Shown: one piece after another, positions 23,062-40,198 of the stretch
Position numbering within the stretch: position 1 is the stretch's first letter
Layout: each line of letters begins with the position of its first letter
NCBI GenBank assembly: GCA_023247275.1
Contig: JAHFGT010000001.1
Coordinates: 6,265 to 70,264 of the forward strand
DNA from: Candidatus Omnitrophota bacterium
GTDB taxonomy: Bacteria > Omnitrophota > Gorgyraeia > Aquiviventales > Aquiviventaceae
Direction: 5' to 3'
Length of the DNA: 64,000 nucleotides
Translations under genes and position numbers: made by a program
The notes under the pieces: generated by a model
What the model was told of the DNA's origin: nothing
The model's input: the letters and a program-made list of their open reading frames with translations, nothing else
The model's database searches: none

Positions 23062-24885
23062 TCACAGCGCGTCGATCACGCCGGCGGTCACGACTTTCCA
23101 CGTCACGCCCCGCGGCTCGCACTGCTGCTGGATGCACTGCAGCAACTCGCCTGGCGGATCGCTCATCGCGATGAGCACTTCGCGGATGCCGTACGCCTCA
23201 AGGCTGTTGGCCAGCTTGCCGCGGCCTCCTAACACCTGGCACCCATGGATTCGGCTCCCATGGGTCCGAATATCATCATCGAGAATGGCGACGACTCGGC
23301 GGGTCGGGCGGGTTTCGTATTTGAGGTAGCGCGCGACGAGCTGGCCGGTATCGCCCGCGCCGATGAGGAGCACCGGGACACCGCGTTCGGCCGCCGCGCC
23401 GATCCACTCATCGAGCAACCGCTCGACGATCCGGGATCCGCCGATGGCCAAAAACGACAGCATCCAATCAATAATGAGCACCGCTCGAGAATAGCCTTGA
23501 AACCGCCAGAGATACAACAGCGCCAGTGCTGAGAGAATCGATCCGAACGAGACCGCGCGGAACATCATCACGATGTCCCATAAACCCAGATATCGCCAAA
23601 TCCCCCGGTACAAGCCACAACTGGCAAAACAACTGATCTTGATCAGCAAGATGATCGGCAACGACTGCACAATGAGCCGTTGGAGATCGCCCGAGAGCAC
23701 CCCCTCGAACCGCAACAGATGCGCGAACACATACACGCTGCCGATCAGACAAAAATCCACGAGAATTTCGACGAGTCGCCGCTTGTGCAGCAGCATCGTC
23801 TCGATAAACGTTCCTGTACTACCAGACGGTGAGAGTACCGGTTCGGCGGCTTGCGGCTCCAGCCGATACACATTGACCCGCGAGAGATACCGGCCAACGA
23901 GTACTAGTCCGGTCAGCACGGACAGCCACAGCGCCAACGCCGGAAGAGGTTTCAAGGTAATGGACACCAGGCTGAGCAGCCCAAAGCCAAGGCTCAGACC
24001 GTACAACACCGTGACGGTTTGCCGAGTACTGAGACCGAGAATCGCGAGCCGGTGCGACACATGGTCGGTCCCACCAGTAAACGGGTGTTGTCGATTCGCA
24101 AGCCGTTGCACCGTCACGAAACAGGTATCGAAGATGGGGACCGCCAGGATGAGTGTCGGGATGGCCAACACGCTGATGACATGCGTGGAGTGGTACCAAC
24201 TTCCCAAGAGCGCGAGCGCGGCTAAGCTGAGCCCAATGAGGTGGCTGCCTGAATCGCCCATAAAAATCTTTGCGGGCGGGAAATTGTAGCGCAGAAACCC
24301 CAGGCAGATTCCCGTCACAATCGCCGCCAGCGTCGCGGTCGTCCACTGGTTGCTGACCACCGCGTGGACCAGGCAGAACCCTGCGCCGATCGCCCCAACG
24401 CCAGCCGCCAACCCGTCCATATTGTCCAAGAGATTGAGGGCATTCATCAGCAGGACAAACCACAAGACGGACAACGGAATGGCAATCCAGGGCCACTGGA
24501 ACAGTTCGATTCGGATTCCGCTGATGACCATGGCGCAGCCGATGATGAGCTGCCCGAGCAGCTTCGTGTACGGCGGCATGCGGCGTAGATCGTCCATCAG
24601 ACCGAGGAGAAACACCAGGCAGGCGCCAAGGAAAAACCCGACGAGCGGCTTCGTCACAGGAAGCCACAGGGCGGCCGAGCCGATGAAACCAAGAAACATC
24701 GCCACGCCGCCGAGCCGGGCGATAATCCGTTTTCCCCACCGATCTTCAACTGGCTTGGAGATCCAGCCAAATCGGACCGCGAACGACCGCACCAGCGGGG
24801 TCAGCACAAAGGTCACCCCCAGGGCGGTCGCACCGGCCGCGAGCACCCGGCCAAAATCGTCCAACAACTGGATGGGAGCACTCAT
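23062..24885 (-). CDS. Polyprenol-phosphate N-acetylhexosamine-1-phosphate transferase (MraY/WecA family) with a C-terminal Rossmann-like domain
   Basis: 607 aa. WecA motifs LMDDL, NALNLLDNMDGL and IFMGDSGS are present. The C-terminal 120 aa (LLIGAGDTGQLVARYL...VVAILDDD) resemble the CoA-binding-like domain of WbaP/CapD-type proteins. Confidence 0.8.
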   Translation of the reverse strand: MSAPIQLLDDFGRVLAAGATALGVTFVLTPLVRSFAVRFGWISKPVEDRWGKRIIARLGGVAMFLGFIGSAALWLPVTKPLVGFFLGACLVFLLGLMDDLRRMPPYTKLLGQLIIGCAMVISGIRIELFQWPWIAIPLSVLWFVLLMNALNLLDNMDGLAAGVGAIGAGFCLVHAVVSNQWTTATLAAIVTGICLGFLRYNFPPAKIFMGDSGSHLIGLSLAALALLGSWYHSTHVISVLAIPTLILAVPIFDTCFVTVQRLANRQHPFTGGTDHVSHRLAILGLSTRQTVTVLYGLSLGFGLLSLVSITLKPLPALALWLSVLTGLVLVGRYLSRVNVYRLEPQAAEPVLSPSGSTGTFIETMLLHKRRLVEILVDFCLIGSVYVFAHLLRFEGVLSGDLQRLIVQSLPIILLIKISCFASCGLYRGIWRYLGLWDIVMMFRAVSFGSILSALALLYLWRFQGYSRAVLIIDWMLSFLAIGGSRIVERLLDEWIGAAAERGVPVLLIGAGDTGQLVARYLKYETRPTRRVVAILDDDIRTHGSRIHGCQVLGGRGKLANSLEAYGIREVLIAMSDPPGELLQCIQQQCEPRGVTWKVVTAGVIDAL

Positions 24886-25906: not shown

Positions 25907-27120
25907 GCGGTCAACTCCTCATAGATCGTGGCCATGTCGGTCACGAACCGGCGGGCCGTAAATCGCGTGCCCACATACGATCGACCCGCGTCTACCAGCC
26001 GCTGGCGCAGCGGCAGATCGGCGGCGACTCGCTCAAGCGCTGCCGCCATCCCATCGGCTCCTGCTGCTAATTGTACCAAGACACCGCGTTCGGCGATATC
26101 GTAACCTTGGCCGCGCTCAACCATCTCGCCGAGCAGATCGGCCACACCCCCCACAGCCGTTGACACCACCGGCCGGCCAGCCGCCATGGCCTCGATCAGT
26201 GACACGGGCGTGCCTTCGTTGCGTGATGTCAGACACACACAGTCCAGATCCGCATAGACATCGGCCAAGCAGAGTTGCCAGCTGACGAACCGCACCCGGT
26301 CGCTGATCCCCAGCGCGCGAGCGAACGATTCCAATGCGTGGCGGCGTTCCCCATCTCCGATGATGACACACCGTGCCCGCGGGTGCCGGCGCGCCAATCG
26401 ACTGGCCGCCTCAAGGAACAGCTCGTGCTGTTTGATGGGCACCAACCGACCCACGATCCCGACCAAATACTCGTCGGCCGACAGCTGGTGTTGATTCCGA
26501 AAGTGGTATCGATACCCATTCACCGCTTGCAACTCGGCAAGCTCCAACCCCAACGGCACCACGCGCAGGCGGGTGTCATCGCCGATCCGCAGCCGCAACA
26601 GTTCCCGCTGCAACGAAGGATTAATGGCGATCAAGACATCGGTGGACCGGCCCAACCATCGCTCGATGCGCACAAACAGCCCGGATACGGCCTCACCAAA
26701 ATAGCCAGACAAGACATGGCCATGGAACATGTGCACCTGTCGAACGCTGGGCCGGGATGGCGACAGCCAGCGCACCGCATTGTACCAACGGGCCGCCACG
26801 CGCCCAAGAGCGCCGGCCTTTGCGGTATGGGTGTGGATGACATCCGGCCGCTGCTGCCAGAGGAGCCGGCAGAGTCTGACCAGCGCAATCAGATCCCGCA
26901 CCGGATGGACCGCGCGCCCGAGCTGTGGGATCACCAGATGTGGAACACGCGCTGGCAACAGTGACGCCAGGTCGCCTTCATCCGCTGACGGCAACCCGGT
27001 AATCACCAAAGTGGAGAAGTACGCCGGATCGAGTCCATCGACCAAGACCGCCATCTGTCGAGCGGTGCCGCCGATGTTTAGCCGGGCGATCACCTGGAGG
27101 ACTTTAATCGGCCGTGGCAT
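25894..27120 (-). CDS. Family-4 (GT-B) glycosyltransferase
   Basis: EGTPVSLIEAMAAGRPVVSTAVGGVADLL in the C-terminal GT1 domain. Confidence 0.8.
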   Translation of the reverse strand: MPRPIKVLQVIARLNIGGTARQMAVLVDGLDPAYFSTLVITGLPSADEGDLASLLPARVPHLVIPQLGRAVHPVRDLIALVRLCRLLWQQRPDVIHTHTAKAGALGRVAARWYNAVRWLSPSRPSVRQVHMFHGHVLSGYFGEAVSGLFVRIERWLGRSTDVLIAINPSLQRELLRLRIGDDTRLRVVPLGLELAELQAVNGYRYHFRNQHQLSADEYLVGIVGRLVPIKQHELFLEAASRLARRHPRARCVIIGDGERRHALESFARALGISDRVRFVSWQLCLADVYADLDCVCLTSRNEGTPVSLIEAMAAGRPVVSTAVGGVADLLGEMVERGQGYDIAERGVLVQLAAGADGMAAALERVAADLPLRQRLVDAGRSYVGTRFTARRFVTDMATIYEELTACTS

Positions 27121-29107
27121 GGGGATGTGTCAAGGGCTTTGAGAGATAGCCCCGCTTCCAATAGGAGAGGATCCCAAGATACTCATGGAGAATGCCGTTG
27201 GCTTGTTGGAGCGTCACACGCTTGCGAATCCACCGCTCATCAGGGCCGCGCTGGTGGGAATAAAACCGGCTGATCGGGATCGGGACATAGATCGCGCGCT
27301 TATCCGGCGCCTGCGCATTCCACACGAGCTGGACACGACGCATATGATAGGGGCTGCTCACCACGAGTACCTGCGTCCACCCTTGCTGTCCGAGAATCCG
27401 ATTCACAAACCGCACGTTGTCGAACGTGTTGGTCGCTTGGTCTTCCAGGATGATCCGCTCTGCCGGGACGCCGAGCGAGACCGCGAGCACTTTCATCACG
27501 TCGGGTTCCCGAAACGTATACATATAGCCGGAGGAAAAAATCAGGTGTTGGGCAAATCCCTGATGGTACAACTCCGCCGCCCATGCCACCCGCTCTTCGT
27601 ACCCTTGAGCCGGTTTGCCGGATTCCCCGACGCCGCCTGCAAACACGACAATCGCATCGCTGGGCACCGGGGCTTGTGAAATCTGCAGCGGCGAGGCCGC
27701 CCACCACACCACCGGCGTATAAAAGATCAGCAGATACGCCGCTAACAACGCCAGGCCGATGCGCGCGATGCGACGCCGCGCGCGATGGTACAGCATCACC
27801 AGCCGCTCCTGCCATTCCACCGGCCCGGTCGCGGCTTGCTGCCGGATCCGGTCCGCCATGAGTCGACTCATTTCCTCAATGCGCCGGTCCCACCCGTTGT
27901 CATAGGCCGCGGCGATCCGACGCTGCACTAGATGATCATCCCGGCGGCTCAACGCCTGCTCGACGTGCTGTACGAACTGCGGATAATCCTTGGCGATCTG
28001 CACCAACGGGCCGTAGCGCTCATTAAACGCTGCGACTTCTGGCAAGAAGGTGGACACCACCGGCTTGCCCAAGGCATGGTACTCGTTCAATTTTGTCGGA
28101 TAGACCGTTTTCGTGTATTCCGACTCCACGTACGGGATCATGGCAACCTCGAACGCTTGGATGTAGTGCGGCAGTTCTTCAAACGGCTTCTGGCCCAAAA
28201 AGAAAATATTGCTGGAGCCGTTGACCGGCGAGATATCGGCTTGCACCGGACCGATCAGCGCCAGCGACCACTCTTTTCGCTGGGTCGCGATGAACTGTAG
28301 CAGGTGAAAATCGACATGCCGGTGCACCCCCCCCACATACCCGATGATCGGTCGGGGGATCGTGTGCAGGTCGTCCGGCAGCCGAGGAGCGGCGTGCGCC
28401 TGTTCGAACGCCTCCAGGTTGACCCCGAAGGGAAACACGTGCACCTGCGGATTCCACTGACGGCACTTGGCCTCGAGCGCAGGCCCCTGAGCAAAGATGA
28501 GGTCACAATGTTGGATGACCGCCTGTTCGGTTCGCCGCACCTTGTGCGGATGGGGCACCAGCTCCTCGAATTCGGCGATGCAATAGTAGACGGCCAACTT
28601 GTGCTCGAGATGGGTCAAGATATCCACGGCGATTCCGGTCGGCAAGAAGGTCCAAATGATCGGGTCATGTGACCCGGTCGCACGGATCCATCGTCGGATC
28701 GCCGTCAGCAGCAACCATTGGTTGATCCAGCGAATGACGCGTGAATACGGACCGGGCAGGATGATCGGCGAATAGACCCAGAGACGATCTTGCACCTTGC
28801 GAAACCCTTTGAAACTTTTGAACCAGTTGACCAGCCGGCGTTGCAGCCGCGGCCAGTCGCGCGGCGTTGGCATGCGCACCCCAGTGTTCTCGATAAACAG
28901 GACATCGTTGCCATGCTTGGCAAACGTCGACATGATCTCCTGATGACCCTGCCACACCGAGTCCCAATCGATCGACGAGAGACAGAGGAGATGTTCGCCG
29001 GTGATCACGCGCGTCTCACACGGTCTGTGGATCCGGATGCCGGAGCCGACGCCAGTCCCACCCGCCGAGCAGTTTTTGCTCAAACACCCGCACACGGTCG
29101 TGCCCAA
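27104..29107 (-). CDS. Fusion protein: GT-B glycosyltransferase-like N-terminal region plus C-terminal DUF218 (YdcF/ElyC/SanA-like) domain
   Basis: 667 aa. The N-terminus (LCLSSIDWDSVWQGHQEIMSTFAKHGNDVLFIEN) is GT1-like. The C-terminus (AIVVFAGGV...LIFSSGY...NTFDNVRFVNRIL...VLVVSSPYHMRR) is DUF218. Confidence 0.6.
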   Translation of the reverse strand: MGTTVCGCLSKNCSAGGTGVGSGIRIHRPCETRVITGEHLLCLSSIDWDSVWQGHQEIMSTFAKHGNDVLFIENTGVRMPTPRDWPRLQRRLVNWFKSFKGFRKVQDRLWVYSPIILPGPYSRVIRWINQWLLLTAIRRWIRATGSHDPIIWTFLPTGIAVDILTHLEHKLAVYYCIAEFEELVPHPHKVRRTEQAVIQHCDLIFAQGPALEAKCRQWNPQVHVFPFGVNLEAFEQAHAAPRLPDDLHTIPRPIIGYVGGVHRHVDFHLLQFIATQRKEWSLALIGPVQADISPVNGSSNIFFLGQKPFEELPHYIQAFEVAMIPYVESEYTKTVYPTKLNEYHALGKPVVSTFLPEVAAFNERYGPLVQIAKDYPQFVQHVEQALSRRDDHLVQRRIAAAYDNGWDRRIEEMSRLMADRIRQQAATGPVEWQERLVMLYHRARRRIARIGLALLAAYLLIFYTPVVWWAASPLQISQAPVPSDAIVVFAGGVGESGKPAQGYEERVAWAAELYHQGFAQHLIFSSGYMYTFREPDVMKVLAVSLGVPAERIILEDQATNTFDNVRFVNRILGQQGWTQVLVVSSPYHMRRVQLVWNAQAPDKRAIYVPIPISRFYSHQRGPDERWIRKRVTLQQANGILHEYLGILSYWKRGYLSKPLTHPHATAD

Positions 29108-29867
29108 GAATCTCCGTGCGACATAACAGCAACGGATCCCGGCCCGGACGATTCAGATCGTGGTGGCTGCACACGCCGAGTTGATAGCCCGCACGAGCCG
29201 CGGCATCCCTGACGCGTTGATCCACCGACCCATGCGGGTATGAGACCGTCGTGACCGGCCGCTGGACCACCTGCTCTATCCACCGGCGGCTGTCGCGCAA
29301 CTCCTGGTCAACATCCTGATCGTTTAACGTCGCCAACCGGCGATGCGTCATGCCATGAGAGCCGATCGAGCAGCCTGGTACGTCGGCCAACCGACGCAGC
29401 TCGGCCATCGTCAGGTAGGCTGGCTGCCCGGTGGTGACATACTGCGGGACGATGAACACGCTAAACGGCAGCGAGAGGGCGTGGAGGATGGGGGCGGCGA
29501 TGGTCCAGGTATCGCGAAAGCCGTCATCAAACGTGATCGCGACCTCCATAGCGTTGGCGGGCGTGGACCAGCCTGGCTCGAGCGCAATGGTGTTCACCTG
29601 TGGATAGCGAACGAGAGCCGCCATCTGTTTCCGGAAGCGTTCCGGGGCGATGCTGATTCCATACGGGTCTGATGGTAGTCGGGTGCCGACCGCATGGTAG
29701 AGGAGAATTCGCAGGCCGGCTGCTGGCTGCCCGGCGCGTGCCAGCGAATAGATCTCAGCGATTCCTCTTGAAACCGCACGCTTCCAACTGATCGCAGTCA
29801 GCGCAGCCACCGTCTCATGGCCTGATTGGCCCCCCAGGACACCGCCTTGGTCAAGGCCCATTCCCAT
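29016..29867 (-). CDS. Polysaccharide deacetylase (CE4)
   Basis: VAITFDDGFRDTWTIAAPIL...GSHGMTHRRL. Confidence 0.8.
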   Translation of the reverse strand: MGMGLDQGGVLGGQSGHETVAALTAISWKRAVSRGIAEIYSLARAGQPAAGLRILLYHAVGTRLPSDPYGISIAPERFRKQMAALVRYPQVNTIALEPGWSTPANAMEVAITFDDGFRDTWTIAAPILHALSLPFSVFIVPQYVTTGQPAYLTMAELRRLADVPGCSIGSHGMTHRRLATLNDQDVDQELRDSRRWIEQVVQRPVTTVSYPHGSVDQRVRDAAARAGYQLGVCSHHDLNRPGRDPLLLCRTEILGHDRVRVFEQKLLGGWDWRRLRHPDPQTV

Positions 29868-30820
29868 TCGCCCAGATATTGGATCCGCTCTCCGCCAAAT
29901 CCTTGTTTGAAATGGTTCACACCGGCGGCTGACGGCTGGTCCGGGCTGATCCCTCCGAAATCGAGTCGGCTGGCTCCGCGCTGTTTCAACACATCAAACA
30001 AGGTCGAGATCATCGCGTAGGCCGCGCTCACTCGCCTGCCCTGCGTCCCGGTGGCCGCCGTCATGTAGAACACCTTGTCCCCGATCCGCAGCGTCAGGCA
30101 GGCGGTCACCGGCACGCGGGCCTGATACCCGATTAACACCAGACAATTGGACTGAAACTGGTCAGCGAGGGCTTGCAGGCTCCCCAACTCCACCGCTGGT
30201 AGCCTGGCCTGCTTGACGCGAGACATCTGCGCATACAGGTGCGCGAAATCGTCCAGCAACGCGGAGGAACGACCCATGGTCCATGTGAGTCCTGCGGCCT
30301 GCGACTGCTTCACATAGTACCGGTGCTTGCGGGTCATGGCTGAGCGCAATTCGTCGAGCGACCGGGTGAGGTCCAACTGAATCGTGTAGCCACTGGTCAC
30401 TGGTACGCTGGGTCGCCCGCAGACACGGGTCAAGCCGGCCGCCGCCTCAGCACACACCCGGTGATGACTGGAAAATCTGGCGTAGACCAGCCGGTGATGG
30501 CGACGAAATGATTCCAACCACTCTGACACCAGCGCTCCGGACATCTGGCCGTGACAGTTTGGAAATCCGATCACCGGCCCACCAGGCGTCCAGACCAAGA
30601 AACGATTGAAGAGGAGCTGTTTCTTGAGGACCTGCAGACAGCCAAGCGGCTGGCGGTGCTCATCGATCGCCTGCCATCGCTCAGGTTCCCATCCAGATCG
30701 GCGCTTGTATTCGCCCCAGGCATACGATTGGAACGGGTTGGCGTCCGTGGCTTGGCCGAGCAGCTGGTCCCACGCCGCGGGTGTGGTGTCTTGCGCAGAA
30801 CAGCGAACCCATTCTACCAT
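29798..30820 (-). CDS. FemAB-family / GNAT-fold (Acetyltransf_6) transferase
   Basis: About 340 aa starting MVEWVRCSAQD. The QSYAWGEYKRRSGWEPERW N-terminus and C-terminal GNAT-like region resemble FemX/FemAB-type aminoacyl transferases. The maximal ORF extends to 30889. Confidence 0.5.
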   Translation of the reverse strand: MVEWVRCSAQDTTPAAWDQLLGQATDANPFQSYAWGEYKRRSGWEPERWQAIDEHRQPLGCLQVLKKQLLFNRFLVWTPGGPVIGFPNCHGQMSGALVSEWLESFRRHHRLVYARFSSHHRVCAEAAAGLTRVCGRPSVPVTSGYTIQLDLTRSLDELRSAMTRKHRYYVKQSQAAGLTWTMGRSSALLDDFAHLYAQMSRVKQARLPAVELGSLQALADQFQSNCLVLIGYQARVPVTACLTLRIGDKVFYMTAATGTQGRRVSAAYAMISTLFDVLKQRGASRLDFGGISPDQPSAAGVNHFKQGFGGERIQYLGEWEWALTKAVSWGANQAMRRWLR

Positions 30821-32808
30821 AGGAATCTCACGCACCAGAGTGCGGTTACTCCTCGGCGAGCCGATGTATCGGTCGCGAGATCCGGCCACTGGAAACAGCG
30901 CAATCCCTGCTGGTGCAACGCGGCTCTCGCCTGCTGTAGCTGGCCTGCTGCCCGAAAGGGATAGCCATACGGAACGACCCAGGCCGGCAGCGTGGGAAAT
31001 ATCGGCTGAACACCGACCCTGGCCAACAGGTGTCCCACGAACTGATACAGCTGTTGACGTCGTGTGGTTTCTTGGATCGGATCGACCAGATGAATGTCGT
31101 CAGCCAACAGCGCAGAGGGCCGAGCGGATTCTGGCAGCGTCGTCTCATCGCGGGCGACAGGCCAGAGCGGACGCGTCGAGTCGAGTAGCCATTGGAATCG
31201 GCGCTCACCAAGCCATGGCACCGCGCCCCGCACGGCTTGCTTTATACGGTACCGGACTGGCACATGCCCATCAAACCGGGGCTGCGGCGGCAGGTCAAAT
31301 GAAGAATCCGCCTGCACCGCTAACCCAGCACCATTTGGCAGGGGGATCGTCTTACGGAAGCTAAAAATTCCTAGCGGCGCGCGGGTCCCGAGCCATGCGC
31401 CTGCAGCGTCTTTGCTCAAGAACCCGTGCGCGTTGTCTTCAATGAGCACGGCTCTGGTGCGTCGAGCGTACGCCTCAAACAGAGCCAGGTCTTGTGGGAA
31501 TCCAAAATAGTTGACGGCAATGATCGCGCGCGCCGGTGGCAGCGTTGCTGGATCATCGGCCAGCGCCAGCTTTTCGTTGACCCGATAGAACACCGGCCGC
31601 GCGCCAACCGCGTGCAGGCTTGACAACAGTTCCCGGCAGATCAGCTCAGGCATCAGTACCGCGTCGCCAGGACGAACCTGAATCAGCCGAAGGGCTTGCG
31701 TCAAGGCCCATCGGCCATAGTTAAAGTAGCGCAGCCGCACCCCAGGCCCGAGCAGCGCCTGAATCGACCACGGCTGCTCTGCTCTGGGCAGGACATAGAC
31801 CGATCGGGATCGGGGACAGCCACCGATCTCCGATTGTTTGATGGAAGAGATCGGTGGCTGTCCCCGATTCCCGGTGATTCGGATCAAGACCTGACGGGCG
31901 CACCGGCTGGCAAGCCAGGGCCATCGATTCGCAACGAACGACTCGAGCTGGAGCGGATACGGATGTGGCGCCAGACGCAGGTCCGGATGAAACCACAACT
32001 CAGAATATCCCGCAACAATCTCACACCGGCCGCCACGAAACGATCGCCACCGCTGTGTCCACGCTCGAGCCGACAAACGGTTCAGCTCCATGATCCCGGT
32101 GGATCCTCGACGATGAAACCGTTTGCCGAAGAGCCGATACACGGCGCGCAGCCCGAGCGCCGGGTTCAGATTATGGAGTTCGATCAAACACCGCGATTGC
32201 AACACTCGATCGCATTCCTCCTGGAACTTGGCGAACACAGTCTCTGGCAGATGCTGCAGTGTCTGCACACTCCACAACCCGGTGATGGTCGCATCGCGAA
32301 TCGGCAGCGCGGCCGCATCCGCGCAGACCAGCACCACACGAGGATGGGAGCCGAGCACCTGTTGCGCGAGCCGCAGATTGCCCAGCGATAGATCGACCCC
32401 GAGGATCCGTGCCCCGCTGGTCTGGGATAACCAATGCCATCCGTAGCCGATTCCCACATCCAAGATCCACTGGTCTGCCGCCCAGCGACGGTAGAATGCG
32501 CTGGCCTGTTGAGCCATGACCGGCAGACAGTGGTGTTGAGCGGCCCTGCGGAGCAATGCGTCACGCGTGGCATGCTGCTGCGTCATGGCTTGAGCCTCTC
32601 GAAATCGGATCTCTGACGCTTGCGCAGGACGATGACCAGGCAACAGCATCGGGATTCCATCGAGAATCGGATACCGCTGGTCGCATCCTGCGCAGCGAAT
32701 CCGGTCGGCAGACTCGAGCGCCAATTGGGCGTGGCAGGCTGGACAGGCCAGCACCTCTGAGAGAGCCTGTTGCAGCGGTTCGCTCTCAAGCAGCGTGTGG
32801 GTGTCCAT
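30814..32808 (-). CDS. Tri-domain protein: Trm112-like zinc ribbon + class I SAM methyltransferase + DegT/DnrJ/EryC1-like PLP aminotransferase domain
   Basis: CPACHAQL...CAGCDQRYPILDGIPMLL is a Trm112/DUF343 ribbon. ILDVGIGYGWHW is methyltransferase motif I. The C-terminal GDAVLMPELICREL...AIIAVNYFGFPQD...VLIEDNAHGF...FSFRKTIPLPNGAGLAV is colinear with DegT/ArnB-type aminotransferases and retains a Lys. The maximal ORF extends to 33009. The Met at 32808 gives a TGATG junction. Confidence 0.7.
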   Translation of the reverse strand: MDTHTLLESEPLQQALSEVLACPACHAQLALESADRIRCAGCDQRYPILDGIPMLLPGHRPAQASEIRFREAQAMTQQHATRDALLRRAAQHHCLPVMAQQASAFYRRWAADQWILDVGIGYGWHWLSQTSGARILGVDLSLGNLRLAQQVLGSHPRVVLVCADAAALPIRDATITGLWSVQTLQHLPETVFAKFQEECDRVLQSRCLIELHNLNPALGLRAVYRLFGKRFHRRGSTGIMELNRLSARAWTQRWRSFRGGRCEIVAGYSELWFHPDLRLAPHPYPLQLESFVANRWPWLASRCARQVLIRITGNRGQPPISSIKQSEIGGCPRSRSVYVLPRAEQPWSIQALLGPGVRLRYFNYGRWALTQALRLIQVRPGDAVLMPELICRELLSSLHAVGARPVFYRVNEKLALADDPATLPPARAIIAVNYFGFPQDLALFEAYARRTRAVLIEDNAHGFLSKDAAGAWLGTRAPLGIFSFRKTIPLPNGAGLAVQADSSFDLPPQPRFDGHVPVRYRIKQAVRGAVPWLGERRFQWLLDSTRPLWPVARDETTLPESARPSALLADDIHLVDPIQETTRRQQLYQFVGHLLARVGVQPIFPTLPAWVVPYGYPFRAAGQLQQARAALHQQGLRCFQWPDLATDTSARRGVTALWCVRFLW

Positions 32809-33722
32809 TACCGTCGCACCCGCGCCAGATTGAGCAGGCCTAAGACGCACGTCTTCCAGGCGAATGGATCTTGCTCTAGCGCCTGCCCAAAGCTGTGCCA
32901 GGCGCGGGCATGGTCGCCCTGTTGCATCAAGGCATGTGCCGCGCCGCGGATCGCCGCCGCGCGCTGCCGCCGCATGGCATACCGGTATCGGAGCGATCGA
33001 TTCGTCCACTGTTGGTAGTGCGCGTCCAACACCGCCAGCACATGGTCGCGATGCTCCTCGATCCGGCTGGTCACGCCCAGCGGATGGACCCGGTAGACGC
33101 CGAGCGGTTCATGCAGGTAGGTGAATCGACCGCCGGCTTTGGCCAGGCGCAACCATAGATCATAGTCTTCGACGCCGTTGATTCGCAGCTCCTCGGAAAA
33201 CCCGCCCACGTCGAGGACAAGCCGCCGCCGCACCACGGTCGCGGACGTTGACAGGCAGTTCCCGCGAAACAAGAGCTGATCGTATCGTCGATGCGGCCCG
33301 TACCGCAGCCGCGATCGATGGCCATTCTCTCGCACCAACCACTCGTCATGACACACAAGGTCGATCGCGGGATCGTTCTCCAACACCGCGCTGACCCGCT
33401 CTAACTTGCGGTCCACCCAATAGTCATCCGCATCCAAAAACGCCACGAACCGACCGCTCGCCGCCTGGATCCCGGTGTTGCGCGCCGCGCCGATGCCCTG
33501 ATGTGGTTGAGTGCACAGCCGGATGACGACGTCCGGATGGTCGCGTCTCCAGGCGTCGGCGAGATCACGCGTTCGGTCGGTTGACCCGTCGTCGACCACT
33601 ACGACTTCATCCGCTCGACAGGTCTGCTGCTGGACAGAATCCAGCGCCTGGGTGATGAACCGCTCAGCGTTACGGGCAGGAATGATGACGCTATACAAGG
33701 ACATCGGCGACGGCAGCCGCAA
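32808..33722 (-). CDS. Family-2 glycosyltransferase
   Basis: YSVIIPARNAERFITQALDSVQQQ...VVVVDDGSTDRT...FLDADD. Confidence 0.8.
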   Translation of the reverse strand: MRLPSPMSLYSVIIPARNAERFITQALDSVQQQTCRADEVVVVDDGSTDRTRDLADAWRRDHPDVVIRLCTQPHQGIGAARNTGIQAASGRFVAFLDADDYWVDRKLERVSAVLENDPAIDLVCHDEWLVRENGHRSRLRYGPHRRYDQLLFRGNCLSTSATVVRRRLVLDVGGFSEELRINGVEDYDLWLRLAKAGGRFTYLHEPLGVYRVHPLGVTSRIEEHRDHVLAVLDAHYQQWTNRSLRYRYAMRRQRAAAIRGAAHALMQQGDHARAWHSFGQALEQDPFAWKTCVLGLLNLARVRR

Positions 33723-35556
33723 CGGTCCGGGTCCCGGCAGAGAATAACTGCTCGCGCATGTAGGCTCTCTCAGCGGGTGATGGCATACCCTGGTGTGGAT
33801 GCTGGCACCAGCGCTCGAGCGCTGTCCGCAGTTCGCCGATCGATCCGAATCGCGGAATCGCCATCACAGCAGCCAACGCCGCGCTGTTAAAACCGGTCGG
33901 CAGCCATTGCCACACCGGTTTGCCGAGCACGAACGCCTCTTCAGCGACGGTCGAATACGTAAACAACACCAGGTCCGCCGCACGCACATCGTCATCGAGC
34001 GGCGCCTGGCTGATAGTGATGCGCTCGTTCCATTTGGTAATGGCCGGGTGGCGACTGATGGGCTGCAAGGGATGCGGTCGCAGGCGGATGCGAATCTGCG
34101 CCATGCCGTCTGTCGCTGCGCACACCGCATCGACTAACTCCAGTTCAGTCGCCAGGTCAAATCCAAGTGCGACGAGAATCTCGAGCGGCCGAGCGCCACC
34201 CGCTGCCAAGGATACCGGACCGCGCGTCAAGGCAATCGCTCGCAGATACTCATAGCGCGGGGTGCCGGTCGGGACGAGCTGCTGACGGGAATACCCGCAG
34301 GTGCGCAGCACCCGCTGGGCCCATGTGCCCATCGTGCACACCATCGCTGGATGCGGAACCGCCACGCCATCCGGCCGCCCCTGAAACTCGAGCGTCGGGT
34401 GCAGCAATAAGAACGTTTTTTCGTGGCTATAGCTTGCGTGTTGGACCGCCCACGAAGTCGTCCCGACCGCCGCGCGCTGCGCGCCCTCATAACAGGCCCG
34501 GGCGTGCGGAAAATGTTCCAGGAAGCTGAGCATCAGTGTCGGCCGATATCGCTGGCACGCACGCTGGGTGGCCAGCGCGACCACCCCCCCATGGGGCAGA
34601 CTGGAATCCAATGTCCCTTGGATCAGCTTGTCAGAGAACAGCGGATAATAGTTCAGCCCGTCCCGCCAACAGGCCGCACGTAACGCCCCAGACTGGTGGA
34701 ATTGCCGCACGATCCACCACGGACGCAGATCCATGAGCGCTGTGCATACCTCCTGCCACCGCAAGAGCGACTGGAGCATCACAACCTGGTCCGTGGCCTG
34801 GGACGTAGGCTGCGCTTGGTGCGGATCATACCAGGCCAACCATCCGCAGGAGATCTGCTGGCTACGAAGCTCGGTTGGCAACTGCCCAAAATATTTGTCA
34901 ACGAGCTTCCCGGTCGTTTGATCCCACCGCACGCTCCAACTCCAAAACCCGCACAACGCCACTTGAAACGATCGACCTGGAAGGCTGCGGCGGCGCAAGC
35001 GCCTGCAGTCGCGCAAGAGCCGGGCTCCATACCGCAGGCGCGTGGCGATGGCTCGGATCATGTCCACCCATCCATGGGACCGACGCTGGCTTCGTTCCAC
35101 CACATGAAATCGGGTTTTCAGTACCGCCACGATTCGAGCTGGGGCGCCATCGAGAATCAGGCGATCGCATCGCGCCTGGGCCGCGGTCGCGCAAATTGTC
35201 AGAATCGCGATGAGGTCGTTAAAGGTTGGGTCGACCTCGCAATCTTTGAACGTGACCGGATGAAACCACCATCGACTCGCGTGCCCTGGCACGGTGAGTC
35301 GCTGACGCAACGTCTGCCCGTCACGATCGGTAGCCAGACCCAGCCGTGCGACCAAGTGGACATACAATCGACGGGCCGTTGTCCGCACCCCCTGTGAAGC
35401 GACCCGTGCCCGGACCACGGTATGGGGAGATCGGACGGCTAACGCTTCCTCTTGAATCGGTGGGAGAAAACTGAGGATCGCGGCGGACGTAACAAACGCC
35501 TGTCGCGGCGGCTCGCGCCAACAGACCCAGACGGACCGCTGGCCAGCCGCCATCAC
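33691..35556 (-). CDS. Large TagF-like (CDP-glycerol glycerophosphotransferase family) or capsule-type transferase, tentative
   Basis: 621 aa. The C-terminal RLRPHP...ADLVLFTYSTVAEEAFVLGKPV resembles the TagF/Glyphos_transf motifs (IKPHP...DLLITDYSS...KPIIFY). Confidence 0.35.
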   Translation of the reverse strand: MMAAGQRSVWVCWREPPRQAFVTSAAILSFLPPIQEEALAVRSPHTVVRARVASQGVRTTARRLYVHLVARLGLATDRDGQTLRQRLTVPGHASRWWFHPVTFKDCEVDPTFNDLIAILTICATAAQARCDRLILDGAPARIVAVLKTRFHVVERSQRRSHGWVDMIRAIATRLRYGARLLRDCRRLRRRSLPGRSFQVALCGFWSWSVRWDQTTGKLVDKYFGQLPTELRSQQISCGWLAWYDPHQAQPTSQATDQVVMLQSLLRWQEVCTALMDLRPWWIVRQFHQSGALRAACWRDGLNYYPLFSDKLIQGTLDSSLPHGGVVALATQRACQRYRPTLMLSFLEHFPHARACYEGAQRAAVGTTSWAVQHASYSHEKTFLLLHPTLEFQGRPDGVAVPHPAMVCTMGTWAQRVLRTCGYSRQQLVPTGTPRYEYLRAIALTRGPVSLAAGGARPLEILVALGFDLATELELVDAVCAATDGMAQIRIRLRPHPLQPISRHPAITKWNERITISQAPLDDDVRAADLVLFTYSTVAEEAFVLGKPVWQWLPTGFNSAALAAVMAIPRFGSIGELRTALERWCQHPHQGMPSPAERAYMREQLFSAGTRTVAAAVADVLV

Positions 35557-37469
35557 GCACCCGAAGGGACGACGTCGGTCGTCGGATTGACCGCGAGGAT
35601 CACCTTGAGATGGGTGCGGGCGCGCGCCAGTTGCCAGGCATGTTCAAATGCCTGCATCGGCAGTGTGTGTTGGAGCAACGCCGTGGTGTCGATCGTTGGC
35701 AGCAGGTTAATCGCTTCTTCGAAATCTACGCCAGCGCTTGCCACCGAGCCGATGAGGGTTTTGTCAGATCCTACGATGTCTTCAAAATTGTACGGCCGGC
35801 GGGCATACGGCAACCCGAGCAGCAAGATCGTGGATCCCGGCGCAGATTGGCGCAAGATCCTCTCAAGCGAATCAGGATCTCCGGTTGCCTCAATGATCAC
35901 GCTAACATCGCGAAGCGAATCCAATCCCTGCGCACTCCTCATGTTGGTGGCCGTCAGGAGCCTGAGCCGATCAACGCGCTGATCCACAACGATCACGTGA
36001 TGACCTCGACGCGCCAGCACCTGCGCGACCAGATGCCCGATCGGCCCGGCTCCGATCACCGCGCAGCTCTTCGGTCCACTAGGGCCCCAGGCAGATTCCA
36101 ATCGCCGGAGCCCTTTCAAGACGACAGCGAGCGGTTCGCAGAGTGCGGCGGCTTTTAAACTCACCTGGTCTGGAAGCCGATGGACGCACCGAGCCGGCAC
36201 GATCAGATAGTCGGCATAGCCGCCGTGATGGCCGATGACCCCTACCTCCTGGCGCTCAGGACACTGAACCGTGTCGCCGGCGCGACAGACAGCGCACTCT
36301 CCACAGCCTTGAAGGCACTCGACCACGACCCGATCCCCCTCAGCCCACTCAGTGACCCGAGATCCGCTCGCCGCGATCACCCCAGAGCATTCGTGTCCTG
36401 GCACGACCGGATAGCTGGCTTGTCCTGACCGGTAATAGCCTAACGTCCCGTCGAGGATGTCCAGGTCCGTCGCGCACACACCTTCGTACGCCACCCGGAT
36501 CAACACCTCGCTGGGCTTGAGCAGAGGCAGTTCGAGCTGCTCAAGGCTGGCCTGCCCTGGCCCACGAATCACGACCGCTGGATACGACACGCGAAACAAC
36601 AGCCGGGCCTGCGCCGACTCGTTCGATGCCTGATGCCCGTTCCATAACCCGGTCGCGGTCCCGACAAACTTCTGCCATCGAAACTGTGCGATCTCAGCGC
36701 CTCGGGTCTGGAGGCAACGGCCATGCCACGCATGGGCCAGATCGCCGATCAGATAACGCAGTTCGCGCCAGGCTTCCCCGGTGACATCCCAGGGCTGTTT
36801 CAGCCCGAGCGTCTTGGCCGCCTGCGCCTCTCGGTAATATCGTCGAAACACCTGCGGCCAGGTTTCGCGATGGAGATGGCAGACGCTGGCCGCTGGTTCA
36901 TAGATGACCTGGTACCCTTGCTGCATCCAATGCTTGGCCCATTCGATATCCTCAAGACCTGGCAACCGCTCATCAAACGGATGCTGCTCCCACAGCTCTC
37001 GCCGCAGCGCCGCGTTGGCGTTATTCGCGAAAAACCGCGGAGACGTCAGGACCTGTCGACAGCCTCCAAACGTCCGCCGAAAGTCACGCGCCTCGCCCAG
37101 CTTGGAGTCCTGATGACCTTCCTGCCGCCCATACACCATGGCGGTCTGCTCCTCGCGAAGCGCAGCAATCAGATGTGTCAACCAGTCAGGGCCTGTCGGC
37201 AGCGCATGCGCAGAAACGATGACCAGATACCGACCCTGACTGTTGCGGATTCCGACATTGGCAGAGTAGCCGAAGGTGAAGTCCTGTTGCCGAATCCGTA
37301 CGAGCCGGTCAGCGCGCTCCTGCGCGATGGCGCGCGTGCGGTCGATCGACCCTGAGTCCACGACAATGGTCTCAACATCCTGGTAGGTCTGCGCGGCGAG
37401 TCGGTCGAACAACGCCGGCAAGAGGGCTTCTTCGTTATAGGTGCGGATAATAATCGAGGTCTCAGCCAT
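35553..37469 (-). CDS. Fusion protein: N-terminal family-2 glycosyltransferase plus C-terminal zinc-dependent medium-chain dehydrogenase (MDR/ADH)
   Basis: The first roughly 280 aa are GT2 (MAETSIIIRTYNEEALL...VVDSGSIDRT). They are followed by GVCATDLDILDG...GHECSGVIAASG and the Rossmann motif VIGAGPIGHLVAQV. The maximal ORF extends to 37643. Confidence 0.75.
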   Translation of the reverse strand: MAETSIIIRTYNEEALLPALFDRLAAQTYQDVETIVVDSGSIDRTRAIAQERADRLVRIRQQDFTFGYSANVGIRNSQGRYLVIVSAHALPTGPDWLTHLIAALREEQTAMVYGRQEGHQDSKLGEARDFRRTFGGCRQVLTSPRFFANNANAALRRELWEQHPFDERLPGLEDIEWAKHWMQQGYQVIYEPAASVCHLHRETWPQVFRRYYREAQAAKTLGLKQPWDVTGEAWRELRYLIGDLAHAWHGRCLQTRGAEIAQFRWQKFVGTATGLWNGHQASNESAQARLLFRVSYPAVVIRGPGQASLEQLELPLLKPSEVLIRVAYEGVCATDLDILDGTLGYYRSGQASYPVVPGHECSGVIAASGSRVTEWAEGDRVVVECLQGCGECAVCRAGDTVQCPERQEVGVIGHHGGYADYLIVPARCVHRLPDQVSLKAAALCEPLAVVLKGLRRLESAWGPSGPKSCAVIGAGPIGHLVAQVLARRGHHVIVVDQRVDRLRLLTATNMRSAQGLDSLRDVSVIIEATGDPDSLERILRQSAPGSTILLLGLPYARRPYNFEDIVGSDKTLIGSVASAGVDFEEAINLLPTIDTTALLQHTLPMQAFEHAWQLARARTHLKVILAVNPTTDVVPSGA

Positions 37470-38424
37470 GGGCGGATGTCTGCGCAACCGGTCGGTGTAA
37501 GACGTCCAGCAGATTTCGGATCGTGCGTTCGTGCACCGCAGTCGCGGCTTGGGGGCTGCTGTTCGCGTTGTGCGGAGCCAGCCAACAGTTGGGCAGTCGA
37601 CGGAGCGGGCTGTCCGCCGGCAACGGCTCAACGTCGAACACATCCAACGCCGCGCCGGCGATTCGTCTTTGCTCCAGGGCGCGCACCAACGCGGATTCCT
37701 CTATCACCGGCCCGCGCGAGGTATTCACGATCACAGCGGTCGGTTTCATGCGCGCGAACGCCGACTCGTCCATCAAATGAAACGAGGTGGGGTTCAGTGA
37801 CGGGTTCAGACTGATACAATCGGCCTCGCGCAGGAGCTGGTCACGTGCCACCATCTGGATCCCGGTACTGGCGACAAATGGCTGTGGTAGCTCTACCGGA
37901 TCATGTCCCAACACCCGCATGCCGAACGCGACCGCCCGACGCACCACCGCCTTGCCGCAATTGCCGACGCCGATCACCCCCAATGTGCGCTCCCGCAGCG
38001 AGACGAGTTCCGGCTTGATCCATTGGCCCTCATGCATCTGCGCATTCATCTCGGCCAGCCGACGGGCAAACAGCAGCAGATATCCCATGACCGTATCAGC
38101 CACTGGTTCACTAAACGCGTTCGGCGTATTGCACACTACGATCCCGCGTTGAGCCGCCGCCTCAAGGTCAATCGAATCGATTCCAGTGCCCCACTTTGAG
38201 ATGACCTTCAGCCGTGGTGCAGCCTCCAGCACCTGGCGCGTCAGCCGATCATCCCCGCAGATGATCCCGTCGATATCACCCACCACCGGCAACAATTCAG
38301 CCTCGCTCAGCCGTTCCTGGACGCGCGCGACAATGACCTCGCATCCAGCGGCTTCCAACGCTGCGCGGTACCGGTCAATCACCGATATGGCATACGGAGC
38401 AGAGATCAGCACCCGGTCGCTCAT
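37462..38424 (-). CDS. D-isomer-specific 2-hydroxyacid dehydrogenase family protein
   Basis: GIVVCNTPNAFSEPVADTVMGYLL and the NAD motif TLGVIGVGNCGKAV. Catalytic R/E/H region. Confidence 0.85.
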   Translation of the reverse strand: MSDRVLISAPYAISVIDRYRAALEAAGCEVIVARVQERLSEAELLPVVGDIDGIICGDDRLTRQVLEAAPRLKVISKWGTGIDSIDLEAAAQRGIVVCNTPNAFSEPVADTVMGYLLLFARRLAEMNAQMHEGQWIKPELVSLRERTLGVIGVGNCGKAVVRRAVAFGMRVLGHDPVELPQPFVASTGIQMVARDQLLREADCISLNPSLNPTSFHLMDESAFARMKPTAVIVNTSRGPVIEESALVRALEQRRIAGAALDVFDVEPLPADSPLRRLPNCWLAPHNANSSPQAATAVHERTIRNLLDVLHRPVAQTSAHG

Positions 38425-39200
38425 TGCGCCGCGGCCGCCTGTCTGTAGCGAGCGATCAGCGGATCGTTCGCCAGCATCGCTTCAACGCTGGGCACATCAT
38501 CCGGCACATCAACCGCCTGGCTGAACCGATCGGTCTCAACCAAGCGCACGCGATACCCATGCTCCAAGAGCCGCAGCATATCGATCGACTCAGCCTGCTC
38601 CAATGGCGTTGGTGGCAGCGTAGCGTAGCGCAGCAACAGGTCCCGCCGGAATGGAATGACGCACACCTGCTTGTAATAGCGCGGATGGCTTGGCAATTCA
38701 CCGGGCGATGATCGGCGAGCCGGAATAACCGCCCGCGAAAAATACAGCGCGTCCCCGCGCGCTGACTGCACCACTTTAATCGTGTTCCAATCCTGTAACT
38801 CGCGCGCCGATCGGATCGGCGCGACCAGATTCACACACCCGACCGCCGGCTCGCGCGCCAACGGCTCGATGGCCGCATCGATCATTTCCGGGACGATCAA
38901 TGGTTCATCACCTTGGACCATCACGATGAGGTCCGCCGTCAACCCCTGCGCGGCCTCAGCGACTCGATCGCTCGCACGCTCATGAGCGGACGAGGTCATC
39001 ACCGCGTGCCCCCCAAACCGCTCAACCGCGGCGGCGATGGCGTCATCACACGTCGCCACCACCACATCGTCCAACGAGTCGCACAGCCGGGTGCGCCAAT
39101 AGACATGTTCGATCATCGGCCGGCCGGCGATCAGCGTCAGTGGTTTGCCAGGGAATCGGGTTGACCCAAGCCTGGCCGGGATGATCGCCGCGATCTTCAT
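38421..39200 (-). CDS. kdsB: 3-deoxy-manno-octulosonate cytidylyltransferase (CMP-Kdo synthetase) family
   Basis: MKIAAIIPARLGSTRFPGKPL...QGDEPL...YFSRAVIP. Colinear with E. coli KdsB. Confidence 0.8.
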   Translation of the reverse strand: MKIAAIIPARLGSTRFPGKPLTLIAGRPMIEHVYWRTRLCDSLDDVVVATCDDAIAAAVERFGGHAVMTSSAHERASDRVAEAAQGLTADLIVMVQGDEPLIVPEMIDAAIEPLAREPAVGCVNLVAPIRSARELQDWNTIKVVQSARGDALYFSRAVIPARRSSPGELPSHPRYYKQVCVIPFRRDLLLRYATLPPTPLEQAESIDMLRLLEHGYRVRLVETDRFSQAVDVPDDVPSVEAMLANDPLIARYRQAAAAQ

Positions 39201-40198
39201 CCGGTCTCCATCGGTCGGCGAGCCACCACCCGGACATGCGAGCTAAGCCGATGCTGACTCAGGAAACTTTGGAAGGCCTGCCGAGTGGCATCATTCGCCT
39301 GCACCAGCGACCTCACAAACCGGGGCATGGGAATCGTCGGATTCTCTTGTACCATGTTCGCCACGATATCGACGTCCAGTCGCCCAGGCGTCGACAGCTC
39401 AACCAACTCGAGGCCGGCTCGCTCCATCAGCCGCTGCAGACCGTGAATCGATAACAGATTGAGATGGTGCGGCGGATGGATGCTCTTCGACCGGTCCCAT
39501 AACACCTGCAAGTCAAAGCCGCTGATGGTGAGCGTCGTCAGGACCAGTAGCCCACCCGGACGCAGCACCTGGCACGCCGCGGTCACAAACTGCAACGGAT
39601 CGAACGGATGCTCCACCACCTCAAACGCGGTGGCAACATCGACCTGACATTCGTCCGGTGTGACCGCCTCCAGCGGTTTCTCAATGACGCGGAATCCGCG
39701 CTGGCGGCAGACGGCGGCCAATGTCGGTCCTGGCTCAATACCCAACACCGTGGAGAACCGATCCAGCCGTTGGATCTCTTCCAAGAACACCCCATAGCCG
39801 GATCCGATGTCGACGAAACTGGAGGCGCGCTCCGCGTGCCGGCCCACGAACTCCTGCACCAACTGGGCGCGCGGGGCAAACAGGTTGCGGCGACGCGATT
39901 CAGCGGTCTGCCGAAAAAAGTCGGTGCTCCAAAATTTCACGGACGCTCCCTCGCGGTAGAATACTGCGAGTTGATCTGCGCTCGGACGCGGCGACACATA
40001 CAGCGAGTCGCACGCGGCACAGCTCACATACGAAAACCCCAGCTTCTCAAATGCTGGCGTCTGCTGCGCAGACCCGCAGCCTGGGCATGGGACCGCCGTA
40101 AACTGTCCGGACGCGTGTGCCAACGACTCCGCATCACGCCGCGCCAGCGTCAGATAGTCGTTAAACAAATCCAGGGGTCGGATATCGGCTTCTTTCAT
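39197..40198 (-). CDS. SAM-dependent methyltransferase with N-terminal Cys4 zinc-binding domain (PF08421-like)
   Basis: CPGCGS-x18-CAAC followed by methyltransferase motif I FVDIGSGYGVF. Confidence 0.8.
   Translation of the reverse strand: MKEADIRPLDLFNDYLTLARRDAESLAHASGQFTAVPCPGCGSAQQTPAFEKLGFSYVSCAACDSLYVSPRPSADQLAVFYREGASVKFWSTDFFRQTAESRRRNLFAPRAQLVQEFVGRHAERASSFVDIGSGYGVFLEEIQRLDRFSTVLGIEPGPTLAAVCRQRGFRVIEKPLEAVTPDECQVDVATAFEVVEHPFDPLQFVTAACQVLRPGGLLVLTTLTISGFDLQVLWDRSKSIHPPHHLNLLSIHGLQRLMERAGLELVELSTPGRLDVDIVANMVQENPTIPMPRFVRSLVQANDATRQAFQSFLSQHRLSSHVRVVARRPMETG

Follow-up and report, generated by a model that had tools for sequence, protein, structure and literature searches.

Deoxysugar pathways such as those of DesV/DesVI and TylB/TylM1 bring together an aminotransferase and a methyltransferase, for amination and then N,N-dimethylation, and in both pairs the two enzymes are separate proteins. 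ArnA is an example of an amino-sugar pathway with two steps fused in one protein, and fusions of Trm112 to methyltransferase domains are known from some bacteria and from a subfamily in archaea (review PMC5372719). Here, we describe a gene of an uncultivated Candidatus Omnitrophota bacterium in which three domains are joined in a single reading frame: a Trm112-like zinc ribbon, a class I S-adenosylmethionine (SAM)-dependent methyltransferase and a DegT-type pyridoxal phosphate (PLP) domain. The gene lies in a 64,000-nucleotide (nt) stretch of contig JAHFGT010000001.1, the whole of which is called the window in what follows.

The fused gene encodes a protein made of a Cys4 ribbon, a class I methyltransferase and a complete but divergent DegT-type PLP domain, that is, two catalytic domains with intact cofactor signatures and a flexible linker between them. 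It is a new and rare domain architecture assembled from known families, and both its parts and its logic are familiar. According to the reading that we favour, this protein is probably a bifunctional glycan-tailoring enzyme that arose by loss of the stop codon between two adjacent, coupled genes of a glycan cassette, and that works by the mechanism proposed below. The parts of the gene and four key codons are as follows.

30814..32808, minus strand: entire fused gene, 664 codons and the TAG stop (30814-30816)
32635..32772, minus strand: Trm112-like Cys4 zinc ribbon, residues ~13-58
31870..32625, minus strand: class I SAM-dependent methyltransferase, residues ~62-313
31801..31869, minus strand: junction or linker, residues ~314-336, NRGQPPISSIKQSEIGGCPRSRS
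30817..31800, minus strand: divergent DegT-type fold-type I PLP domain, residues 337-664
31711-31713, minus strand: R366, clade-specific invariant
31636-31638, minus strand: C391, clade-specific invariant
31435-31437, minus strand: D458, the Asp to the pyridine nitrogen
31351-31353, minus strand: K486, at the Schiff-base Lys position

The first-pass annotation, made from the letters alone, had described a 664-amino-acid (aa) open reading frame that joins these three domains. The listing of open reading frames and a residue check agree with it, and every motif that it quoted was located in the protein: C22-P-A-C25, C39-A-G-C42 and Y46PILDGIPMLL in the ribbon, and G381D..P387, IIAVNYFG436, I456EDNAHG462 and F482SFRKT487 in the PLP half. 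The open frame spans 30814..33009 on the minus strand and the ATG at 32808 gives 664 aa, the same length as in public gene calls on identical sequence. This ATG overlaps the stop of the upstream glycosyltransferase gene by 1 nt (TAATG, with the A common to the TAA stop), and the 3′ end of the fused gene overlaps the ATG of the downstream FemAB-like gene by 7 nt; these overlaps at both ends indicate a tightly coupled operon. A longer reading of 731 aa from a GTG at 33009 was discarded because it would overlap the glycosyltransferase gene by 200 nt, and it is also disfavoured by the start used in public gene calls and by the coupled start of the orthologue, both of which agree with the ATG at 32808.

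Is the fusion genuine? Over its 1995 nt, the gene shows 0 mismatches to the ENA assembly ERZ27276474 and to the Logan assembly SRR14366783; 7 of the 18,665 flanking positions in the ENA contig disagree with the window, which marks this contig as assembled independently and not copied. Guanine-plus-cytosine content is even across the junction, both overall (GC) and at third codon positions (GC3). In addition, a second protein of the same kind (P0002, the window gene being P0001) has 671 aa, 46% identity over 98% coverage, all three domains and an identical gene order, and occurs on 8 contigs from several JGI and Logan samples; no interruption of the frame was found in either lineage. On these grounds, the frameshift or assembly join that the first reading had named as a possible refutation was rejected. 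The fusion is genuine and it is rare: only two sequence clusters carry the tri-domain arrangement among 5.8 billion clusters, and among the best 150 matches of the DegT-like clade the only long proteins are P0001, P0002 and P0117.

Pfam, NCBIfam and PDB sequence scans recover the three domains in the single reading frame, with scores that place the methyltransferase, DegT and Trm112-like matches far beyond chance; the methyltransferase and DegT matches lie above their Pfam gathering scores and the ribbon lies marginally under its own. The ribbon matches Trm112p (PF03966, residues 15-51) at 21.9 bits against a gathering score of 22.0, NCBIfam Trm112_arch at E 1.6e-8 and the solved Trm112-like protein SCO3027 (PDB 2kpi) at E 2.5e-8, and PF03966 is present in the precomputed hits for P0002 and for most members of the ribbon-methyltransferase family. 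It carries the Trm112/DUF343 signature, [C/D]PxC...CxxC followed by a YP(I/V)xDGIP strand, and the four zinc-ligand cysteines C22, C25, C39 and C42 are invariant among 34 family sequences. In the AlphaFold2 (AF2) model, YPILDGIPMLL forms a beta strand and the predicted local distance difference test (pLDDT) of the ribbon is above 90. The methyltransferase matches Pfam Methyltransf_25/11 (PF13649/PF08241, residues 115-205) with 46 bits and E 7e-12, the gathering scores being 27 and 21.2. Its layout comprises a helical N-terminal extension, a Rossmann core with motif I (L116DVGIGYG123) plus D139 and D164, and a conserved C-terminal lid that carries SELWFHPD; D117, G119, G121 and D139 are invariant in the family alignment.

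The class I methyltransferase fold was confirmed by the AF2 model and by Foldseek. The model of residues 1-316 reaches a pLDDT of 92.5 and a predicted template modelling score (pTM) of 0.91, and this high confidence implies that the ribbon would be packed on the methyltransferase as one rigid body. The best fold match across all 316 residues is RlmA(I), and the next matches of the methyltransferase are generic enzymes of small-molecule methylation, namely phosphoethanolamine N-methyltransferases, a geranyl pyrophosphate (GPP) C-methyltransferase, AtmM and MitM, together with the Hvo_0019-Trm112 complex. At the sequence level, its best characterised relatives are the sugar O-methyltransferases AtmM (6uv6, E 3e-8) and RebM (3bus), and then MftM. 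Neither DesVI nor TylM1 appears among its PDB sequence hits at E<=1 or among its 50 best fold matches. Regarding novelty, a covalent fusion with a Trm112 module had been noted at first as an unfamiliar architecture. For the ribbon and the methyltransferase this does not hold, since the half also exists as a stand-alone family of ~310 aa with >60 clusters at 45-57% identity, and fusions of this type are described in PMC5372719. The ribbon-methyltransferase half is thus a known architecture in a new setting.

In the C-terminal half, Pfam DegT_DnrJ_EryC1 (PF01041) matches residues 367-496 with 46.7 bits (E 3.5e-12, gathering score 19.8), taking in only profile positions 50-182 of 360, and searches of PDB sequences return TlmJ, WecE and ArnB, only over residues 47-185 of this half. 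No NCBIfam model reaches its cut-off for the DegT half: the matches to WecE, ArnB, LegC and PseC are all far sub-threshold and the best, WecE, scores 40.7 of 375 bits. The limited Pfam coverage might suggest that the DegT domain is truncated or partial, but the AF2 model and the fold search led us to dismiss this. The model of residues 317-664, built on an alignment of 14 clade members, has a pLDDT of 84.7 and a pTM of 0.86, with only its first 16 residues disordered. Foldseek aligns 328-352 columns of it to WbpE, GDP-perosamine synthase, WecE, ArnB and DesV, with probability 1.0, a TM-score of about 0.6 and 17-19% identity. Whether the DegT part was complete had been raised together with the first description, and the half is predicted to be a whole fold-type I domain, with its large and small domains. 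At the clade level, the profile matches KdnA at E 7e-26. The clade itself is large, with 2334 clusters at 50% identity retrieved at E<=1e-30 by an exhaustive profile search of 1.84 billion representatives, and the stand-alone proteins are about 330-380 aa long.

The residues expected of a PLP enzyme are conserved in this clade. Among 144 members, K486, D458, R366, P387, F435, G436, G474, P613 and W641 are 100% conserved, C391 is found in 99%, R485 in 98%, and H461 and S483 in 97% each. Another clade-specific invariant is Y434-F-G-F437, and YFGFPQ serves as the clade signature. Pairwise phmmer alignment places K486 two positions ahead of the catalytic Lys; however, the clade profile and MAFFT alignments reveal a clade-wide 2-residue deletion and align K486 with the Schiff-base Lys of KdnA and 8vr3 (FSF..RKT versus FSFhpRKT and YSFdsVKT). 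A displaced and hence inactive Lys was rejected on these grounds, and the early remark that the Lys is retained stands for the whole clade sampled. The PLP domain stops at ..FLW and lacks the helix with which canonical DegT proteins end. Also at this end, the window protein has A645 (30874-30876) where 98% of the clade has Pro, in the C-terminal WPDLP motif.

How did the two halves come together? In L014, the gene order is GT2 – MT(307) – DegT-like(359) – FemAB-like – CE4, where GT2 is a family 2 glycosyltransferase, MT the zinc-ribbon methyltransferase and CE4 a carbohydrate esterase family 4 polysaccharide deacetylase. Separate, adjacent methyltransferase and DegT-like genes in the same order are also found in L013, in a Chlorobium metagenome-assembled genome (MAG) (L039) and in L071. 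When 35 metagenome loci seeded with the methyltransferase and having enough downstream sequence were inspected, the following gene was DegT-like in 23, FemAB-like without a DegT-like gene in 6, and neither in the remaining 6. A separate methyltransferase gene stands immediately upstream of a stand-alone DegT-like gene in 22 other loci; in three loci where the two share a common frame, a stop still intervenes, and this stop is missing only in the P0001 and P0002 lineages. Because the halves occur elsewhere as separate neighbours in the same order, the window gene is explained as a stop-loss fusion of neighbours. The linker fits this origin: in alignments it matches the C-terminal tail of the methyltransferase together with the variable leader at the N-terminus of DegT-like proteins that stand alone, and disorder is predicted for it (pLDDT <50 for residues 317-332, the first 16 of the C-terminal model). 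The initial impression of an unrecognised architecture was therefore right in that the tri-domain fusion is real and rare, and went too far in that the gene is merely a member of the methyltransferase family joined to its usual downstream neighbour.

The DegT-like domain has also been joined to other partners, namely to GT2 in P0003 (L009 8001-9911) and P0015 (L011 8001-10031) and to the CE4 polysaccharide deacetylase in P0117, and it is the C-terminal partner in every fusion found. P0001 and P0002 form the most distant pair in the methyltransferase family (rank 52 of 52 by BLOSUM distances), and each half of P0002 has a nearer stand-alone relative (P0089 and P0113). A simple neighbour-joining and distance analysis thus suggests two independent fusions or a later fission, and makes a single ancestral fusion doubtful.

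The neighbours of the fused gene belong to a recurrent cassette with the order (LIC13510-like) – GT2 – [zinc-ribbon methyltransferase] – DegT-like – FemAB-like – CE4 – (group-1 glycosyltransferase/DUF218). In the window, its other members are the following.

33691..35553, minus strand: LIC13510-like (TIGR04326) surface-carbohydrate protein, 620 aa, no Pfam domain, a frequent neighbour
32808..33722, minus strand: soluble GT2 glycosyltransferase, 304 aa, upstream and translationally coupled, with a conserved position
29798..30820, minus strand: FemAB-like/Acetyltransf_6 protein, 340 aa, immediately downstream, Pfam PF02388/PF13480
29016..29810, minus strand: CE4 polysaccharide deacetylase, 264 aa, cassette partner
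27104..29008, minus strand: fusion of a group-1 glycosyltransferase (Pfam Glyco_trans_1_4, TuaH-like) and DUF218 (ElyC/YdcF-like), 634 aa

DegT-like relatives were found in at least 545 stretches of the species-representative genomes scanned, and 80 loci were kept, among which the source genome of the window did not figure. Neighbours were counted in 50 species-representative loci with close DegT-like genes, 43 or 39 of which enter a given count. A FemAB-like gene lies immediately downstream of the DegT-like gene in 37/43, GT2 immediately upstream in 25/43, a CE4 deacetylase at most 3 kb downstream in 20/39, and the methyltransferase just upstream in 1/43. These counts make the pair of DegT-like and FemAB-like genes the core of the cassette, of which the methyltransferase is an optional accessory, yet one that is largely dedicated to it. 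In six metagenome loci (L114-L117, L121 and L122) the FemAB-like gene comes straight after the methyltransferase gene, no DegT-like gene intervening, an order that connects the methyltransferase with the FemAB-like step no less than with the PLP step. The group-1 glycosyltransferase/DUF218 fusion recurs beside the cassette in L007, L010, L039, L060, L110 and L124, and the protein at 33691..35553, whose match to TIGR04326 is weak, travels with it in many loci. Among the matches listed, the hosts include Elusimicrobia, Ilumatobacteraceae and other Acidimicrobiia from freshwater, Candidatus Ferrigenium straubiae KS, Nitrospira, Chlorobium, Bdellovibrio-like MAGs, Arcobacter, Omnitrophota and some archaea. 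Scans of NCBIfam and Pfam returned no curated model specific to any member of the cassette. The FemAB-like neighbour matches TIGR03019 at 44 bits, below the cut-off, and FemX/FemA at E ~1e-3. A PEP-CTERM/XrtA locus was considered and rejected, as the FemAB-like and family 4 glycosyltransferase (GT4) neighbours match TIGR03019 and TIGR03088 only far below their cut-offs.

One further locus, L015 (Nitrospiraceae MAG GCA_027717545.1, 7001-13004), carries a cassette that looks degraded. There, the methyltransferase gene is intact, the DegT-like region shows up only as a tblastn match (9686-10465) in which no gene is called, the Acetyltransf_6 gene is shortened to 225 aa and a transposase (rve_3) adjoins.

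Our working model for the cassette is as follows. The PLP domain would convert a keto sugar, most likely a nucleotide-activated one, into an amino sugar, whose amine would be acylated or aminoacylated by the FemAB-like neighbour. GT2 would install the sugar and CE4 would take an N-acyl group off somewhere in the product. The methyltransferase would optionally methylate this sugar or the substituent that it carries, the in-cis ribbon taking over the stabilising role that Trm112 has in trans, and the fusion would hold the two activities close together at 1:1 stoichiometry. Amino-sugar formation coupled to methylation is plausible. As for the methyl target, an O-methyl group is our tentative first choice, with somewhat less than an even chance; N-methylation of the sugar amine is less probable, and the same holds, to an equal degree, for the FemAB-added substituent or another site.

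The closest competitor of this model is the one that the first-pass annotation had put forward, an N-methylated amino sugar made in the manner of DesV and DesVI. In its full form, a nucleoside diphosphate (NDP)-4-keto-6-deoxyhexose would be aminated and the same amine then N-methylated or N,N-dimethylated by a single polypeptide. Both activities are plausible from the domains, the fusion and the strict adjacency argue for one common substrate molecule, and phosphoethanolamine N-methyltransferases figure among the fold neighbours of the methyltransferase. On the other hand, DesVI and TylM1 are missing from the hits, both by sequence and by fold, within the limits given above, and the best characterised sequence relatives are AtmM and RebM, which act on sugar oxygens, and MftM. 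The cassette itself also speaks against it: the FemAB-like enzyme found in 37/43 loci would need a free amine, which N,N-dimethylation would block, and the methyltransferase is optional and in 6 loci directly precedes the FemAB-like gene with no DegT-like gene present. We conclude that this route, for which no specific support was found, is somewhat unlikely, mono-N-methylation by the methyltransferase being possible.

A more ambitious version of the cassette model is that the PLP clade, with its Cys and Arg at the cofactor site, the FemAB-like protein (possibly aminoacyl-tRNA-dependent), GT2 and CE4 form a physical multi-enzyme assembly that produces an aminoacyl- or acyl-amido sugar, optionally methylated by the zinc-ribbon methyltransferase. 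The fusions of the DegT-like domain to the methyltransferase, to GT2 and to CE4, taken together, suggest that the enzymes of the cassette work jointly on a single sugar; the physical assembly as a whole is a conjecture that we hold to be unlikely.

Could the DegT-like domain be something other than an aminotransferase? It might perform other PLP chemistry through Cys391, such as a dehydration or an action on an amino-acid substituent, or be a non-catalytic scaffold that recruits the methyltransferase, GT2 and CE4. The clade invariants R366, C391, R485 and YFGF 434-437 differ from canonical DegT, the C-terminus is cut down to ..FLW, the domain is fused to three different partners, and the DegT family has members that are not aminotransferases, such as ColD and E1 dehydratases, both of which are matched by the clade profile. 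Against this, K486 and D458 at 100% with H461 and S483 at 97% in the 144 sequences make up a pattern typical of a functional Schiff-base enzyme, and the Lys is kept here, whereas ColD has His at this position; the Lys is likewise replaced by His in E1-type dehydratases. Moreover, every top match, by fold and by profile, is an aminotransferase. Such a different role for the domain is, in our view, quite improbable.

Several observations nonetheless weigh against the glycan-tailoring model that we prefer. Pfam and PDB sequence matches reach only the central third of the PLP domain. R366 aligns with the Thr of the 'SGT' motif of canonical DegT proteins, and in WecE and TlmJ the counterpart of C391 is the Phe of the 'TF' motif; the canonical Thr/Ser of 'SGT' contacts the phosphate and the aromatic residue of 'P-x-x-T-F/W/Y' stacks on the ring. 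Judging from these aligned positions, the swaps may mean that the chemistry differs from simple transamination. No dedicated keto-sugar-forming enzyme directly adjoins the gene, the nearest 4,6-dehydratase-like gene of the short-chain dehydrogenase/reductase (SDR) type lying five genes downstream. Also, literature searches for the cassette or for aminotransferase-methyltransferase fusions returned nothing relevant.

Finally, that the gene is an artefact, two genes joined by a frameshift, a sequencing error or a chimeric assembly, has a negligible chance of being true: its one favourable point is that the methyltransferase and the DegT-like protein are separate in all 22 other loci with the direct order, and it is opposed by the identical 1995-nt sequence in three assemblies of which one is not a copy (7 of 18,665), by the lack of an in-frame stop and the even GC and GC3 over the junction, and by the same fusion in a 46%-identical protein on 8 contigs from other samples.

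Why does a fusion of this kind matter? In itself it is a small evolutionary event, and its value lies in the evidence that it gives of a functional linkage, in this case between a dedicated zinc-ribbon methyltransferase family and a large, divergent DegT-like clade for which we found neither a curated model nor a paper. Above all, it draws attention to a widespread glycan-tailoring cassette built on the DegT-like and FemAB-like pair. If the assembly version of the model, held above to be unlikely, is true, the fused gene would be a marker for a widespread, unstudied glycan-modification pathway, the in-cis ribbon would represent the first Trm112-type activation of a carbohydrate methyltransferase, and the three alternative fusions would be Rosetta-stone evidence for a complex. 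The fused protein is a compact, single-polypeptide target for working out the product of the cassette, and with it one could ask whether Trm112-like ribbons of bacteria also activate methyltransferases that do not act on RNA.

The fused gene is located inside a surface-polysaccharide island of >55 kb. The island includes Wzy_C, two family 9 glycosyltransferase (GT9) heptosyltransferase-like genes, many GT2 and GT4 genes, PMT_2, an ATP-binding cassette (ABC) exporter, at least 7 other methyltransferases, a radical SAM/SPASM protein, two cytidylyltransferases, SDRs and a class IV aminotransferase, and the housekeeping genes fmt and priA are found at the low-coordinate end of the window. All PriA relatives that carry a name, at 55-65% identity, come from Candidatus Omnitrophica/Omnitrophota, which places the host in this group. 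All likely genes identified in the window (1-64000) run along the minus strand, and their start and stop codons often overlap; the cumulative GC skew falls steadily over its whole length.

Other genes of the island deserve mention. At 35553-37469 (minus strand), in the same operon as the fused gene, an N-terminal GT2 is fused to a C-terminal Zn-dependent alcohol dehydrogenase, the closest models for the dehydrogenase part being scyllo-inosose 3-dehydrogenase (150 bits) and threonine dehydrogenase (133 bits), both below their cut-offs; this protein could supply the PLP domain with a keto sugar. The 607-aa product of 23062-24885 (minus strand) combines a WecA/MraY-type Glycos_transf_4 with a C-terminal region similar to CoA_binding_3 and exopolysaccharide (EPS) sugar transferases, an unusual pairing of two modules of the initiating-transferase type. 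Upstream, four genes at 40316-41356, 39197-40198, 38421-39200 and 37462-38424 (minus strand) make up a cluster (37462-41356) of a radical SAM/SPASM protein, a methyltransferase, a cytidylyltransferase of the cytidine monophosphate (CMP)-sugar type and a 2-hydroxyacid dehydrogenase. Similar sets (NeuB, CTP_transf_3, radical SAM, 2-Hacid_dh) lie beside the cassette in L003, L010 and L011, and the radical SAM/cytidylyltransferase sets hint at a modified ulosonic or nonulosonic acid. Besides the LIC13510-like protein at 33691-35553, three large open reading frames of the island carry no Pfam domain: 44074-46038 (654 aa), 47275-49272 (665 aa) and 62421-63914 (497 aa), all on the minus strand.

In comparison with known systems, the Arn pathway, made up of the aminotransferase ArnB, the bifunctional fusion ArnA, the GT2 ArnC, the CE4 deformylase ArnD and ArnT, shows the same co-occurrence of enzyme classes (DegT, N-acyltransferase, GT2 and CE4), and a PMT_2 (ArnT-like) gene is found nearby in L013, in L014 and in the window. 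However, the GT2 of the window has no ArnC match in NCBIfam and no obvious C-terminal membrane anchor, its CE4 has no ArnD match in NCBIfam, and the acyltransferase has a FemAB fold and is not a formyltransferase. An Arn-like pathway was accordingly rejected: the classes fit, but the likeness is one of analogy only. With DesV/DesVI and TylB/TylM1, the locus has the two enzyme classes in common, but its methyltransferase lacks specific similarity to DesVI or TylM1 and the amine-acylating partner in the cassette argues against dimethylation. The DegT/DnrJ/EryC1/StrS proteins (WbpE, Per, WecE, ArnB, DesV and KdnA) have in common with the C-terminal half the full fold, the setting in polysaccharide clusters, the Schiff-base Lys, the Asp to the pyridine nitrogen, the His/Gln position and the phosphate Ser. 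The clade described here differs from them by its 17-19% identity, the 2-residue deletion before the Lys (FSF-RK versus FSFHxxK), an Arg for the Thr of SGT, a Cys for the aromatic residue of TF, the YFGFPQ signature and the short FLW end. RlmA(I), the 23S rRNA m1G745 methyltransferase (PDB 1p91), likewise has an N-terminal zinc ribbon and a class I methyltransferase; it is 14% identical and its ribbon recognises RNA, whereas the genomic context here gives no hint of an RNA substrate. Lastly, the Trm112-methyltransferase holoenzymes and fusions (PMC5372719) have the same Cys4 knuckle and beta strand N-terminal to a class I methyltransferase; a beta-zipper joins Trm112 to the class I methyltransferases that it activates, and its known partners methylate tRNA, rRNA or release factors, whereas the methyltransferase family described here is found only in a glycan cassette.

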